From Spirochaetota bacterium (GTDB lineage Bacteria > Spirochaetota > UBA4802 > UBA5550): 64,000 bases of DNA. The DNA lies in NCBI GenBank assembly GCA_963664815.2, contig CAXXHB010000002.1, positions 224,001-288,000 on the forward strand. The letters run 5' to 3'. Made by a program: the position numbers and the translations under genes. Of this stretch, positions 16,069 through 22,175 are shown one piece after another. Numbering within the stretch: the stretch's first letter is position 1; each line of letters begins with the position of its first letter. A model generated the notes under the pieces. The model was given only the letters and a program-made list of their open reading frames with translations. It was not told where the DNA came from and did not search any database.

Positions 16069-17688
16069 ATGCGTTATAGAATTAATAATAAAAAGATAGT
16101 CTCATTAATTGCATGCGCAGTTTTTTTAGTTTTTCTTTTTTCAACTACTGAATCCTTTTCAAGGGCAGGACGGGGACAGAGCTATAGTTCAAAATCTTCA
16201 AGCTCAAAATCAAGTTCCTATTCCAGAAAAAGTTCTTCAGGAAGCAGCTCCGGTTTTTTCTCCGGCAGCTCAGGTTCAAAAAACTCTTCTTCTAAAACTG
16301 TTATACCAGTTTTTATACCATCATCGGGTGGAACCGGTACTGGGGGGAATACCGCAGCAGGATCTGCATCTCCAGATACAACATCAACCCAGACTTCGGC
16401 GGGGAAAAATGACTGGATTTTCGGTCTTGTCGGCCTTGTAATAATAATCGGGATCTTTGCCCTGATTATTTACCTGATAGTAAAACTATTTAAAAAAATA
16501 TTTGGTTCCGGCGGTTCCGGAATAAAATTTGATGATACAAAGCCTACCGCTTTTGAGTTTGATCCTTCCCTGCTGCAACAGTTAAAAGGTACCGATCCGG
16601 ACTTTTCGGCTGATCTATTTATGGACAAGGCAAAAACAATCGCCGAGCGTCTTCAGAAAGCCTGGAGCGATGGCGACATGATGCCGGTAAGAAATTATGT
16701 CTCACAGGGAGTTTTCAACCGTTTCAGGCTTCAGCTTGAACTTATGGTAGAAGAAGAAAAAGTCCGCAATATACTCTCCGATTATAAAGTACTTAAAATT
16801 TCTGTATCAGATCTCAGTAATTCAAAAAGCTACCAGACTCTCCATGTAAATATCTTTGCGTGTGCAAAAGATATAACCATTACTGCAAACGCCTCAGAAG
16901 ATGAGAAGCAGAAATCTCTCGCTGGAACAAAAAAAACTGCATTCTATGAAATATACTCATTCACACGAAAACTCGGAACAAAGACAAATACCAAAAGCGA
17001 CTGGCTTAAAGGGGAATGTCCTAACTGCGGATATGTTCCGGATAATTTCAGCGAAACAAACAAGTGTGTAAGTTGTGGATCAATATATAACTCCGGAGAA
17101 TTCGATTGGGTTCTTTCTGAAATCACACAACAGGAAGAATGGCAGCCTGGTTCAGCGGATGATATTGACGGACTCAAAGAACTTGAGGGGAAAAACCTTT
17201 CAATCAACAGGGAGGTTATTGAAGATCGAGCCTCATACCTTTTCTGGAGATGGATTTACTCACGGGTGAAAGGAACATCAGCGCCTATGTCGAGAGATGC
17301 ATCGGCAGAAATGCTTGATTCACTCGGAAATGGTAAAGAACCTTTATATAACACATCTGTAGGTTCAGTAGACCTTATTTCTGTCCGGAATGAAAATGGT
17401 AACGCATATGCAGATGTCAAAATTCAATGGAGCACTGCCCGTGTTATAAATGAAGAACCTTATCACCAGGAGCACAATTTCGTATTGAAAATGCCTCTGA
17501 CACAGAAAAACCCTTATGGTCTTGCCGATCATTCATGCGAATCATGCGGAGGACCTCTCCCTGAAAGTGATACAATAAAATGCAGCTATTGCGGTAATGA
17601 ACTTCCATCAACAGTAACTGACTGGGTACTTACAGATGCCGAAGAAATAGACTGGGAATCGGAATACCCGGAGGAGAATGAATATTAA
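16069..17688 (+). CDS. Membrane-anchored Tim44-like domain protein with two double zinc ribbons
   Basis: Signal-like N-terminus ending RAGRGQSY, Ser/Gly-rich linker, one TM, DPDFS..F and lqkAWs Tim44-like motif. Zinc ribbons CPNCG..CVSCG and CESCG..CSYCG, each followed by DWVL. Confidence 0.75.
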   Translation: MRYRINNKKIVSLIACAVFLVFLFSTTESFSRAGRGQSYSSKSSSSKSSSYSRKSSSGSSSGFFSGSSGSKNSSSKTVIPVFIPSSGGTGTGGNTAAGSASPDTTSTQTSAGKNDWIFGLVGLVIIIGIFALIIYLIVKLFKKIFGSGGSGIKFDDTKPTAFEFDPSLLQQLKGTDPDFSADLFMDKAKTIAERLQKAWSDGDMMPVRNYVSQGVFNRFRLQLELMVEEEKVRNILSDYKVLKISVSDLSNSKSYQTLHVNIFACAKDITITANASEDEKQKSLAGTKKTAFYEIYSFTRKLGTKTNTKSDWLKGECPNCGYVPDNFSETNKCVSCGSIYNSGEFDWVLSEITQQEEWQPGSADDIDGLKELEGKNLSINREVIEDRASYLFWRWIYSRVKGTSAPMSRDASAEMLDSLGNGKEPLYNTSVGSVDLISVRNENGNAYADVKIQWSTARVINEEPYHQEHNFVLKMPLTQKNPYGLADHSCESCGGPLPESDTIKCSYCGNELPSTVTDWVLTDAEEIDWESEYPEENEY

Positions 17689-17747: not shown

Positions 17748-17898
17748 ATATCTCTGATATACGTTTCTCCGTCCAGTATCTTTATTTTATCCAGTCGTAT
17801 AATTGCAATCTGAACATCAGTTACAGTGCAAAACCAATAAAATAGTTGTAAAGAAAAGGGCAAAATATATCTTTTACTTTAACAATACGGATAATCTA

Positions 17899-19755
17899 TT
17901 GAAAAAACTGAATCTCATATTAATATCAATACACATTAAAAATTCTCCACAGGCTATGCCGCTTGCTGCTGGTCTGCTTAAAGCGCAACTTGATTCAATA
18001 CCTGAAATTAATTCTAAACTTAATGTATCTTTTATGGACTTCTATACAAACACTTCGTCTGAATCTATATCCGAAAGTATATGCCATGAGATGCCCGACT
18101 TAATTGGTTTTTCAGTATACTTATGGAACAGACAGCTGACTGAAGAGGTTTGTCATCTAATAAAAAAAAGACTACCTGAAACTTTACTCTTCGCCGGAGG
18201 TGCAGAAGCCACAGCCCGTCCAGAAAATCTTCTTTTCAGTGCTCCCTTTGACTTTGTTGTTAAAGGTGAAGGAGAACTGCCTCTCACTGAAGTAATGAAA
18301 AGAATACTGAAAAATATGTTATATAATAATATACCCGGAGTCTTTATTAAAAATGAAACAAGCATTATCGCAGAAGACCAATGGCCTCTTCCGCCCCTTG
18401 ATCTTCTCCCCTCCCCTTTTATGACCGGCATTATAAATATCGAAAACTATTCAGGTATTTTATGGGAGCTCTCCCGTGGCTGTCCGTTCAAATGCAGTTT
18501 CTGTTTTGAATCACGCGGAGTTTCCGGAATAAGACAAATCTCGATGGATCGTCTTCAGAGAGAACTGGAGATATTCGAATTTAAAAAAGTAAACCAGGTA
18601 TTCGTACTCGACCCTACATTTAACCAGGATATAAAGCGCGCAAAAAAAATTCTCCGGATAATACAGAAAACAGCACCTCTGATACACTATACCTTTGAAT
18701 TAAGAACAGAATTTATCGACAATGAAATTGCCGGACTATTCGCATCACTAAACTGCAGTCTCCAGATAGGACTTCAGAGCGCCATTCCTGAAGTACTCTC
18801 TAATGTAAACAGAAACATTGATCCGGATAAATACAAAGAAAAAATTTCAATTCTTAACATGAAGGGAGCAGTTTTCGGACTCGATCTGATCTACGGCCTC
18901 CCGGGCGATACATTCGAGGGGTTTAAATATAGCCTCAATTTCGCTCTCAGCCTTCAGCCTAATCATCTTGATATCTTTCCTCTGTCAGTACTTCCGGGAA
19001 CCGTTTTATATGAAAAAGCCGATTCTTTTAATCTTAAATTTCTTCATGAATCACCATATACACTAATCTCTTCACCAGGATTTTCTGAGTCAGATATGGA
19101 TGCTGCTGATCAGTTAAAAAATTCCTGCAACATTTTTTATAATAAAGGTGGCGCTGCGGGCTGGATGTTTATGATTACTGAAACTCTTGGTTATAAACCC
19201 GTCAAACTTCTTGAAGATTTTTCTAAATATATACATCCTGGCATTACGGAAACAGGCTTAACTGAAATCTCTATAACTGAATTACAATTAACATTTATAG
19301 AGGAGCTTTTCAGAAAACATAACATTATGCATCTGTTTCCTGTTATGAAAGATATAATAAATATTCATGGCGCATTAAACCGTTCTCTCTACGCAGGCCC
19401 ATACACAGAAACAATTACCCCTTCACTTAATGACGAATCTCTTTACAAATTATCATCAGGAACAATATTTATCACTCTCAGCTATAATTTTGATGACCTT
19501 ATGGCCGTGGGGGAATTTACCCTGGAGGAATTTCTGGCTCATTATCATCCGGAAACAACATCTGTAATAATTTATAATTGCAGAGGAGTTGTTAAATCTA
19601 TAATAGTAAATAGAAACATCTACAATCTGCTTCAGAACTTTACCGGAGAACTCACATTAAATAAAATTTCAGATAAAAAATCACAAATCAGTACGGAGGA
19701 AGCACATGAATTTATAGAATATGCCATTACTGAAACAATGATTCATCTTATTTAA
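17899..19755 (+). CDS. B12-binding domain radical SAM protein
   Basis: PDLIGFSVYLWN and GGAEAT cobalamin-binding domain, RGCPFKCSFC CxxxCxxC motif and DLIYGLPGD. The start is probably the TTG at 17899 (the ORF is open from 17803). Confidence 0.88.
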   Translation: MKKLNLILISIHIKNSPQAMPLAAGLLKAQLDSIPEINSKLNVSFMDFYTNTSSESISESICHEMPDLIGFSVYLWNRQLTEEVCHLIKKRLPETLLFAGGAEATARPENLLFSAPFDFVVKGEGELPLTEVMKRILKNMLYNNIPGVFIKNETSIIAEDQWPLPPLDLLPSPFMTGIINIENYSGILWELSRGCPFKCSFCFESRGVSGIRQISMDRLQRELEIFEFKKVNQVFVLDPTFNQDIKRAKKILRIIQKTAPLIHYTFELRTEFIDNEIAGLFASLNCSLQIGLQSAIPEVLSNVNRNIDPDKYKEKISILNMKGAVFGLDLIYGLPGDTFEGFKYSLNFALSLQPNHLDIFPLSVLPGTVLYEKADSFNLKFLHESPYTLISSPGFSESDMDAADQLKNSCNIFYNKGGAAGWMFMITETLGYKPVKLLEDFSKYIHPGITETGLTEISITELQLTFIEELFRKHNIMHLFPVMKDIINIHGALNRSLYAGPYTETITPSLNDESLYKLSSGTIFITLSYNFDDLMAVGEFTLEEFLAHYHPETTSVIIYNCRGVVKSIIVNRNIYNLLQNFTGELTLNKISDKKSQISTEEAHEFIEYAITETMIHLI

Positions 19756-19879: not shown

Positions 19880-21934
19880 ATGACAGAAGAAAAAATATCA
19901 CGCCTTAATTTTAATATTGATGCTGAGTCAAAAAATTCCTCAGCCCGGGCATGCACATTCACTACTCTGCACAATACTGTCCAAACACCTGTATTTATGC
20001 CTGTGGCGACACTGGCGGTTCTCCGTTCTCAGGACACTTCATCAGTTGAAGATCTGGGTTATCCGGTATTACTTGCCAACACTTATCATCTTCTTCTACG
20101 CCCTGGAACAGATGTTTTCAGTAAAATCGGCGGTATACATAAATTCATGAACTGGAAAAGATCCATTCTCACCGATTCCGGCGGATTTCAGGTTTTTTCA
20201 CTATCAAAGGATGTGAAAATCACAGAAGACGGTGCTGTATTTAAAAGCTACCATGACGGCCGAAAAATTCTTTTAAGCCCCGAATCAAGTATCAATACAC
20301 AAAAATTAATCAACAGTGATATTATGATGGCTATGGATCTATGCATACCTTCCACATCTGAAGAGTCCCTGTGTATGAAAGCCGTGGATATAACAGCAAG
20401 ATGGGCGGAGAGAAGCATAACGGTGCGGGGAGATTCTCTTCAATCAGTTTTCGGGATAGTACAGGGTGCATGCTTTTCTGAACTCCGCAAAAAAAGTGCA
20501 GGGCAGATAACATCTCTCCCATTTGACGGATTCGCTATCGGTGGTCTTGCCGTTGGAGAATCCGGTGATGAAAGAAAGGATATTACTGAATTCACCGCAT
20601 CACTTCTCCCCCGCAGCTTTCCGCGTTACCTTATGGGAGTTGGTACTCCTGTCGATATTCTCGAGGCTGTACACCGAGGTGTCGATATGTTTGACTGTAT
20701 ACTCCCCACTGCAATGGCACAGCAGGGAGTTGCCTACACTTCTCATGGAAGAATGGAACTGCGCCGAGGAGTCTATAAGTTTCAGGATCGGCCCCTTGAT
20801 GAAAACTGTTCCTGTCCGGCTTGTGCCAGGTACAGCCGGGCATATCTGCACCATCTTACAAAAACAGGGGAGTACTATGGCGGAAACCTCATAGGGATTC
20901 ACAATCTGACATTCTATCGCAATTTGATGATATCCATGCGCAGAGAGATAATCAATGGAACATTTGCATCTTTTTATTATGAATATAAAGAAAAACTGGC
21001 TATTGACGATGATGAATATCCTGTCTCTCCTCCGAAGACAAAGAAAAAAACTTTTCTTCCAAAACTCGGTGATTATGAAATTATAAAACATAGTACCGGT
21101 TTTCACAGCATACGCCATATAAAATCCGGGGAGGTAATGCATTCCGTTACAGATCCACTGACTGAAGCATATAACCTTTACATAAGCCAGTCAGATATAC
21201 ATCGCATGTTTAAAATTGTCCCTGATGAAAATATCGTTATCTGGGATGTGGGACTCGGCGCAGGAACAAATGCCATGGCGGCAATTTTTGAATTCGAAAA
21301 AATATACGCCGTCAATAATAACGAAAAAGGAGTCCGGATAATCAGCTTTGAAAAAAACCTTGATTCAATGCGCCTTGCTGCTAAAAATCCTGCACTTTTT
21401 CCGCACGTACGCCACTCCGCTCCGTCTGCACTGCTGAAAAACGGAATATGGAAATCGGATTTGTATAATATCGAATGGAATCTGGTTGAAGGAGATTTCC
21501 TCAATAATATCGAAATTACTCAAAGACCTCATTTAATTTTTTATGATCCTTTTTCTATAAACACTGATGGTCCTCTCTGGGATTATTCAGTATTCAGACG
21601 CATCTTTAATCGCTGTGCGGGGAACCCGGCAAAGCTGTTTACTTATTCAAGTTCCACTAAGGTCAGGAGTGCACTCCTGGCTGCAGGTTTCTATACAGGG
21701 ACAGGTGCGGGCACAGGACCGAAAACAGATACAACAGCGGCTTTTACTTCTCCCGACATAATAAATCCGGAAATACTACTCCTGGGTGATGACTGGCTTG
21801 AACGCTTTAGCCGCAGCAGTTCAAGATTCACCAGTGATATCTCTGATGACAGAAAGTCTGAAATCGAAAAACTGATAATAAACCATCCTCAGTTTAAAAA
21901 ATATTCAGTTAAGGATATTCATGGAAAAGAATGA
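19880..21934 (+). CDS. tgt: tRNA-guanine(34) transglycosylase fused to an MnmC-like SAM methyltransferase domain
   Basis: Tgt motifs TPVFMPV, NTYHL, TDSGGFQVFSL, GIVQG, GGLAVGE, YLMGVG, DMFDC and CxCxxC..H zinc site. C-terminal about 290 aa with GEVMHS, DVGLGAGTN, SFE, YDPFS, TYS..VRSAL.AAGF and GPK. Confidence 0.9.
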   Translation: MTEEKISRLNFNIDAESKNSSARACTFTTLHNTVQTPVFMPVATLAVLRSQDTSSVEDLGYPVLLANTYHLLLRPGTDVFSKIGGIHKFMNWKRSILTDSGGFQVFSLSKDVKITEDGAVFKSYHDGRKILLSPESSINTQKLINSDIMMAMDLCIPSTSEESLCMKAVDITARWAERSITVRGDSLQSVFGIVQGACFSELRKKSAGQITSLPFDGFAIGGLAVGESGDERKDITEFTASLLPRSFPRYLMGVGTPVDILEAVHRGVDMFDCILPTAMAQQGVAYTSHGRMELRRGVYKFQDRPLDENCSCPACARYSRAYLHHLTKTGEYYGGNLIGIHNLTFYRNLMISMRREIINGTFASFYYEYKEKLAIDDDEYPVSPPKTKKKTFLPKLGDYEIIKHSTGFHSIRHIKSGEVMHSVTDPLTEAYNLYISQSDIHRMFKIVPDENIVIWDVGLGAGTNAMAAIFEFEKIYAVNNNEKGVRIISFEKNLDSMRLAAKNPALFPHVRHSAPSALLKNGIWKSDLYNIEWNLVEGDFLNNIEITQRPHLIFYDPFSINTDGPLWDYSVFRRIFNRCAGNPAKLFTYSSSTKVRSALLAAGFYTGTGAGTGPKTDTTAAFTSPDIINPEILLLGDDWLERFSRSSSRFTSDISDDRKSEIEKLIINHPQFKKYSVKDIHGKE

Positions 21935-22175
21935 AACATCAATGATGGACCCGACCGTCCTTATTGATCTTACAACAACTGAAATGCCTTTCGGCAAATA
22001 CAGGGGAGTAATACTCTGCAATCTCCCGGAACATTATATTGTATGGTATCATGAAAACGGATTCCCGAAAGGGAGGCTTGGTATGCTTCTTTCCACCTTA
22101 TATGAAATAAAACTTTATGGTCTGGAATATCTTTTAAATCCATTAAAAAAAACTAATTCCTATTATAATGATTAA
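21921..22175 (+). CDS. DUF3820-family small protein
   Basis: MPFGKYRG..L.NLPE.Y..W and GFPKG.LG.LL..LYEIK..GLE.LL signature. Overlaps the tgt fusion by 14 nt. Confidence 0.8.
   Translation: MEKNETSMMDPTVLIDLTTTEMPFGKYRGVILCNLPEHYIVWYHENGFPKGRLGMLLSTLYEIKLYGLEYLLNPLKKTNSYYND

Follow-up and report, generated by a model that had tools for sequence, protein, structure and literature searches.

A Tgt–MnmC2-like methyltransferase fusion, encoded beside the queuosine pathway in many bacterial phyla, as a candidate writer of N-methyl-preQ1 in RNA

A single open reading frame (ORF) within a 64-kb stretch of a Spirochaetota genome (contig CAXXHB010000002.1, positions 224,001 to 288,000; this whole stretch is referred to as the window) joins a Tgt domain to a methyltransferase domain, and relatives of both halves are well described. 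MnmC2 N-methylates the aminomethyl group on base 34, and E. coli MnmC links this methyltransferase fold to the enzyme creating the aminomethyl group, thus providing a precedent for consecutive steps within one protein. In contrast to MnmC, the partner in the fusion is a Tgt and not the flavin adenine dinucleotide-dependent oxidoreductase MnmC1. Two Tgt paralogues within one organism are likewise found in eukaryotes (QTRT1/QTRT2); QTRT2 is a paralogue that lost catalysis, whereas the fused Tgt keeps every catalytic residue checked. With bacterial Tgt (EC 2.4.2.29; Z. mobilis structures 1efz and 1q2r) the fusion has the fold, the catalytic aspartate pair, the zinc site and the pocket for 7-aminomethyl-7-deazaguanine (preQ1) in common. 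The whole C-terminal domain aligns to MnmC2/DUF752, both to the Aquifex aeolicus protein (3vyw, full length, E 8.7e-17) and to the N-terminal methyltransferase domains of E. coli and Yersinia MnmC (3awi, 3ps9, 3pvc, 2qy6), sharing MHS, D-x-G-x-G-xxx-N, the acidic Glu, GD, D-x-F-S, LW, TYS, R, AGF and G-x-K. In the reading that the analysis below favours, the fusion combines a second, specialised Tgt with a methyltransferase of MnmC2 descent, the two being held together by a basic and flexible linker. Our tentative proposal, held at somewhat below even confidence, is that it inserts preQ1 into RNA and subsequently N-methylates the inserted base.

The only preQ1 methyltransferase known to us is DpdM. 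Together with DpdA it likewise represents a pairing of a Tgt-superfamily transglycosylase and a methyltransferase leading to a methylated 7-aminomethyl-7-deazaguanine, and according to PMC10516641 it makes mdPreQ1 in phage DNA and is a DUF3109/YkgJ-like metal-binding protein with a CxxxCxxCC metal motif. An earlier note on this DNA, made from the sequence alone, had brought in the methylated phage nucleoside as a precedent. This parallel does not extend to the enzymes, as DpdM is a DUF3109 protein acting on DNA (PMC10516641), while the fusion is devoid of DUF3109 and its MnmC-like domain has an unrelated fold.

That one uninterrupted frame carries both domains, as the earlier note had read it, was confirmed by translation and by Pfam and NCBIfam profiles (coordinates in Table 1). 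All motifs quoted there reappear in the translation, which contains SGEVMHS, WDVGLGAGTN, FYDPFS, TYSSSTKVRSALLAAGF, GTGPK, MPVAT and PTAMAQQG. Only two families were returned by the Pfam scan, namely TGT (residues 21-372, about 444 bits) and, within the C-terminal extension of ~310 residues beyond Tgt, Methyltransf_30 (PF05430; residues 530-622, 43.1 bits at a cut-off of 22), whose match takes in model positions 30-122 of 124 and represents the C-terminal part only. Among the NCBIfam profiles, the Tgt equivalog TIGR00430 scores 437 bits and exceeds its cut-off of 306.75, whereas the MnmC2 model NF033855 reaches 67.5 bits on residues 415-621, below its cut-off of 136. In an AlphaFold model both domains fold confidently, with a mean predicted local distance difference test (pLDDT) value of 89.3 and a predicted template modelling (pTM) score of 0.59. 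The model superimposes on Z. mobilis Tgt with a target-normalised template modelling score of 0.95 and a root-mean-square deviation of 1.5 Å at 42% identity, and a fold search with it re-found Tgt only. Linker residues 387-390 have pLDDT values below 50, and the linker columns of the alignment are missing from non-fused Tgt. Owing to the pTM of 0.59 and the disordered linker, no confident inter-domain geometry can be derived from the model.

Bacteria carrying the fusion gene number several hundred species or more and come from many phyla. When one genome per species was scanned with an alignment of the C-terminal domain, at least 583 loci were confirmed, and the locus architecture was examined in the best 80 of them. 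According to the record titles, these 80 derive from Spirochaetota, Opitutae and other Verrucomicrobiota, Oligoflexia, Bacteriovoracaceae, Binatia, Thermodesulfobacteriota, Riflebacteria, Chitinispirillaceae and further groups. Of the 79 loci whose C-terminal domain could be recognised, 71 have the Tgt motif in frame with it; in seven of the other eight the frame opens right where the locus starts, in most cases at a contig end. A second scan, covering mainly Chthoniobacterales, gave 61 fused loci out of 73 and added a cultured bacterium, Chthoniobacter flavus Ellin428, to the carriers, whose gene (L226 4786-6912) has a frame of 708 aa. Within a large protein collection both Pfam domains are present in 117 of the 120 best clusters (54-100% identity), and among 301 Spirochaetota genomes sampled there are 11 with a frame of fused length, distributed over five families. 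An assembly artefact, which absence from homologues would have indicated, is thereby dismissed: the same architecture recurs in at least 583 loci. In a tree of the Tgt domain, 186 fusions form one clade excluding 36 non-fused paralogues of the same genomes (support 0.989, stem 0.68). Architecture, spread and single origin of the fusion are established. One fusion gene is decaying, carrying an internal TAA (G171:C62:55535-56407).

These 186 distinct fusions and 36 non-fused paralogues also served for a residue comparison of the Tgt half, numbered as in Z. mobilis Tgt via an HMMER alignment. Retained in the window protein are Asp99 and Asp272 (D102 and D280 of Z. mobilis), Asp153 and Cys155 (D156 and C158), GGLAVGE at residues 221-227 and a zinc site formed by C310, C312, C315 and H341. 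The same holds for the family: D102, D156, C158, G229, G230, L231, A232, V233, E235, Y258, G261 and D280 as well as the zinc ligands C318, C320, C323 and H349 are invariant in all 186 fusions, and M260 is kept in 185, so that the catalytic aspartates, zinc site and preQ1 pocket read earlier in the window protein are a property of the whole group. C158 and V233 are what we take to be the determinants of preQ1 versus queuine specificity. Conserved in the fusions as well, as F89, Y318, Y322, H325, E331 and R49, are the positions matching the dimer-contact residues studied in bacterial Tgt, presumably part of the dimer interface. One of the two divergences reported for the window protein proved real and family-wide: both arginines absent from its PTAMAQQG helix, Arg286 and Arg289 of the canonical PTRxxRxG, are present in 36/36 non-fused Tgt and in 0/186 fusions, being substituted mostly by Ala (93), Gln (59) or Ser (27) at the first position and chiefly by Gln (173) at the second. 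In addition, His127 is changed to Tyr in 184 fusions, Arg174 to Leu or Ile, and Val282 to Ile. The other supposed divergence, MPVAT, lost its meaning as a mark, since the canonical Tgt of the same genome reads MPVAT too; Gly occupies this position in 72 of the 186 fusions, and Ala is found in 9 of the 36 non-fused proteins.

Both arginines presumably contact the RNA directly. A literature search on such contacts yielded a single passage, placing Arg286 beside the ribose-34/phosphate-35 pocket (PMC5395182). With such presumed RNA-contact residues altered, the modification may be steered towards a chosen part of the tRNA set or towards a different RNA. In a broader alternative, both chemistries take place on an unexpected target, i.e., another RNA or position, another methyl-accepting atom or a neighbouring nucleotide. 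The family-wide exchanges at Arg286, Arg289, Arg174 and His127 together with the location of Arg286 speak in its favour, as do a methyltransferase substrate loop unlike that of MnmC2 and the tolerance of bacterial Tgt, which according to PMC4425180 needs little beyond U-G-U in a 7-base loop and accepts non-tRNA substrates. We nevertheless consider it unlikely. Methyltransferases devoid of a Tgt domain survive in genomes having only a canonical Tgt (see below), which is harder to explain if the specialised Tgt alone makes the substrate, and the 45 tRNA genes of the window's genome include none that is supernumerary or unusual. A role on DNA is opposed by the absence of relatives of the fusion or its C-terminal domain from 50,697 phage records and from a viral contig collection, and by the lack of a Dpd-like cluster nearby.

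For the methyltransferase half, 179 fusions were compared with 18 stand-alone spirochaetal MnmC2 proteins. The window protein displays GEVMHS, motif I (WDVGLGAG), the acidic Glu491, Gly538-Asp539, motif IV (DPFS) and a C-terminal HPQF. Common to the fusions and all 18 stand-alone proteins are D456, G458, G460, N464, E491, G538-D539 and D556-x-F-S559. The two groups are nevertheless separated in a tree of this domain (support 0.856, stem 1.36). They also differ in the loop following motif IV, DPFSPxxNPELW, which is fixed in 18/18 stand-alone MnmC2, while P560, N563, P564 and E565 vary across the 179 fusions and the fixed P-x-x-N-P-E is missing; this loop probably sets the choice of substrate. 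Near-invariant and specific to the fusions are, in turn, W455, P426, Y434, F540, H509, H512, W524, W533, T618, W639 and HxQF.

We then compared the gene content of 36 fusion-bearing genomes, comprising the window's own, 10 other Spirochaetota and 25 from other phyla. The fusion is an extra paralogue on top of a full queuosine pathway. A non-fused Tgt is present in every one of the 36 genomes, being fragmentary in two of the 25 from other phyla (located at a contig end in one, split over two frames in the other). The second, canonical Tgt searched for in the window's genome was found as a 370-aa protein reading PTRIARNG; it scores 513.6 bits with Pfam TGT against 446.6 for the fusion, and with this lower score and its separate clade the fusion is not the orthologous housekeeping Tgt of the genome. 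The search for queuosine, preQ1-synthesis and mnm genes was equally productive, retrieving queA, queH, queF and queC as well as mnmG (C2:322187-324022). Among the 35 other genomes, QueA is present in 34 and QueF above its cut-off in 32, as it is in the window's genome. As QueF and QueA nearly always co-occur with the fusion, queuosine synthesis is not replaced, and the QueA/QueG-independent alternative to queuosine that had been suggested for the fusion has to be abandoned. Beside the clear QueH, two QueG-like frames below the TIGR00276 cut-off were noticed (G000:C3:2805830-2806831 and C3:1117686-1118707), the second one split across two frames. Further Tgt copies exist elsewhere: besides canonical Tgt and fusion, one genome has another Tgt-like frame as its third, which is divergent and 389 aa long (323 bits; G264:C16:168567-169640, L073), and another (G319) gives three Tgt matches. 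The 45 tRNA genes of the window's genome form an ordinary set, in which the Tyr, Asn, His and Asp tRNAs are each encoded by a single gene; a search among them for a specialised or atypical tRNA as the target found none.

A redundancy similar to that of the Tgt half applies to the methyltransferase half. The window's genome has its own stand-alone MnmC2 of 272 aa with the canonical DPFSPSKNPELW loop (G000:C2:333021-333305; L003 1129-1947), located ~10 kb from mnmG, and such a gene is kept in six of the 11 fused Spirochaetota genomes, including four out of five of the window's own family. These data bear on the simplest explanation of the fusion, a plain bifunctional enzyme performing the ordinary queuosine step and, on other tRNAs, the ordinary conversion of 5-aminomethyl-2-thiouridine (nm5s2U) to its methylated form mnm5s2U. 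In accordance with it, the protein exceeds the Tgt equivalog cut-off, its best non-Tgt NCBIfam match is MnmC2, mnmG is encoded in the window's genome, and the query used here retrieved no separate MnmC2-like gene from five of the 11 Spirochaetota genomes with the fusion. Both halves are, however, redundant with housekeeping copies and have diverged from them, the C-terminal domain by its score of about half the MnmC2 cut-off, its separate clade and its altered loop, for which reason we disfavour this explanation and rate it as distinctly improbable. Furthermore, unrelated substrates would not explain that the two halves stayed fused as a single clade.

The C-terminal domain also exists on its own. 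With matches of E up to 1e-30, 182 protein representatives were collected; many short ones start inside the C-terminal helices of Tgt and hence represent pieces of fused proteins, while others start exactly at the domain boundary. In Chthoniobacterales, C-domain genes devoid of Tgt branch from within the fused members at three points of the tree, and all five genomes tested that hold such a stand-alone gene have one Tgt, a canonical one (PTRxAR). It follows that the substrate of the methyltransferase can be supplied without the fused Tgt, and the methyltransferase can stay under selection without a Tgt domain of its own. This fits a substrate which canonical Tgt makes as well, for instance preQ1 in tRNA, or else free preQ1. 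A further C-domain-only frame is decaying and contains an internal TGA, in a genome whose sole Tgt is canonical (G241:C25:24194-25030; L051 9195-10028). A subgroup of stand-alone proteins of about 275-300 aa (P0189, P0192, P0197, P0198, P0205, P0208, P0214, P0222 and P0226) matches the domain with E 1e-33 to 1e-45 and combines an MnmC2-like DPYSPxxNxEMW loop with an EIMHN motif, and could stand midway between MnmC2 and the clade of fusions.

The stand-alone forms are likewise relevant for the order of the two steps. The same product would arise if free preQ1 were methylated first and N-methyl-preQ1 then inserted by the fused, or any, Tgt. Stand-alone C-domains living with canonical Tgt only and a flexible linker, modelled without fixed two-site geometry, are compatible with this reversed sequence, and bacterial Tgt has reportedly been used to insert substituted preQ1 analogues into RNA, a technique known as RNA-TAG. 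On the other hand, the MnmC2 family is known to act on tRNA-bound and not on free bases, the Lys-rich linker suggests binding of nucleic acid, and the pocket residues are the same as in preQ1-inserting Tgt, without enlargement. We therefore regard methylation of the free base as very unlikely.

In the proposed sequence of insertion followed by methylation, the Tgt half would replace a loop guanine of an RNA by preQ1 through the usual chemistry of an Asp nucleophile and an Asp base, the likeliest site being G34 of GUN-anticodon tRNAs or another U-G-U loop. The methyltransferase half would subsequently transfer a methyl group from S-adenosylmethionine to the exocyclic aminomethyl nitrogen of the inserted base, giving 7-(methylaminomethyl)-7-deazaguanosine (N-methyl-preQ1). 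Part of the preQ1 pool, or of preQ1-containing RNA, would thereby be diverted from QueA and queuosine. N-methyl-preQ1 is suggested because a catalytic Tgt of the preQ1 type is joined to a fold that N-methylates aminomethyl groups. This core of the earlier idea has stood, as it gives the best fit to the anatomy of the protein, the invariant preQ1 pocket, the extra paralogous halves with clades of their own and the presence of QueF; its extension to a replacement of queuosine has not. We put N-methyl-preQ1 in RNA as the product, irrespective of the reaction order, at about even chances.

Several points weigh against this proposal. Which base is inserted, what accepts the methyl group, which step comes first and which RNA is modified are all inferred for the fusion, and the product is assigned from the domain families; to our knowledge, MnmC2-type enzymes act on uridine derivatives only. 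Judged from the residues, the loss of Arg286, Arg289, Arg174 and His127 may indicate a nucleic-acid target other than tRNA position 34. A G34 target would, moreover, bring the fusion into competition with canonical Tgt and QueA for single Tyr, Asn, His and Asp tRNA genes. The predicted inter-domain geometry lends no support to two active sites working on one bound RNA. Rfam detected no family at gathering score within the 64-kb window, hence no preQ1 riboswitch and not even a tRNA, and in 20 related loci neither a preQ1 riboswitch nor another element apart from two incidental tRNAs. Finally, QueF occurs in 11/11 fused Spirochaetota genomes compared with 149/301 overall, an association that is statistically weak because the 11 genomes fall into five families, two of which (f1 and f14, both with the fusion) have QueF in nearly all sampled genomes.

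The surroundings of the gene were evaluated by all-against-all clustering of the neighbours in 11 Spirochaetota loci, 80 multi-phylum loci and 80 mostly Chthoniobacterales loci, and no conserved neighbour emerged: the largest cluster apart from the fusion itself covered five of the 80 multi-phylum and 12 of the 80 mostly Chthoniobacterales loci. Lacking a conserved neighbour in ~90 loci, the gene looks self-sufficient. The DUF3820 gene highlighted in the earlier note does overlap the fusion stop, by 14 nt. It was rejected as a core partner, being a lineage-specific neighbour that in ~90 compared loci adjoins the fusion only in the window, in its nearest relative (L041/L074) and in L077, a locus of one more Spirochaetia genome; in L044 a DUF3820 gene lies 2.4 kb away. 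Upstream of the fusion, at a distance of 125 nt, the window encodes a B12-binding radical SAM protein of 650 aa (17803-19755, +), likewise discarded as a partner, as the window and its nearest relative (L041) are the only loci in which it accompanies the fusion. It is preceded by a gene (16069-17688, +) for a 539-aa protein with a Tim44-like domain (PF04280, 45.5 bits) and C-terminal zinc-ribbon matches below the Pfam cut-offs.

Table 1. Features of the fusion gene and its overlapping neighbour; positions refer to the window.
Feature	Position	Strand	Remarks
Tgt–MnmC2-like methyltransferase fusion ORF	19880..21934	+	684 aa, no internal stop
Tgt domain of the fusion, residues 1-372	19880..20995	+	Pfam/NCBIfam scores, residue map, structure model
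PTAMAQQG helix, residues 276-283, lacking canonical Arg286 and Arg289	20705..20728	+	alignment
Linker, residues 373-395 (DDDEYPVSPPKTKKK...), basic, Pro/Lys-rich	20996..21064	+	model pLDDT, alignment
MnmC2-like class I SAM methyltransferase domain, residues 396-675	21065..21904	+	profiles, structure alignments
Methyltransferase motif I WDVGLGAG, residues 455-462	21242-21265	+	sequence
Methyltransferase motif IV DPFS, residues 556-559	21545-21556	+	sequence
DUF3820/QSregVF_b gene, 84 aa	21921..22175	+	PF12843, 100 bits

A literature search returned no report of the fusion, nor of methyl-preQ1 in tRNA. In the sources this large family is labelled as plain Tgt, and reconstructions of the queuosine pathway from genomes at present take it for an ordinary tgt. 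The C-terminal domain together with the absence of Arg286 and Arg289 allows it to be distinguished precisely, and cultured hosts exist. It appears to us equally plausible as not that the N-methyl-preQ1 nucleoside is one not yet catalogued in RNA and represents a branch of the queuosine pathway at the preQ1 stage. If true, the fusion would constitute an unrecognised branch of queuosine biosynthesis and add a further 7-deazaguanine derivative to those in RNA, and a deazapurine would join uridine among the substrates of the MnmC2 fold.

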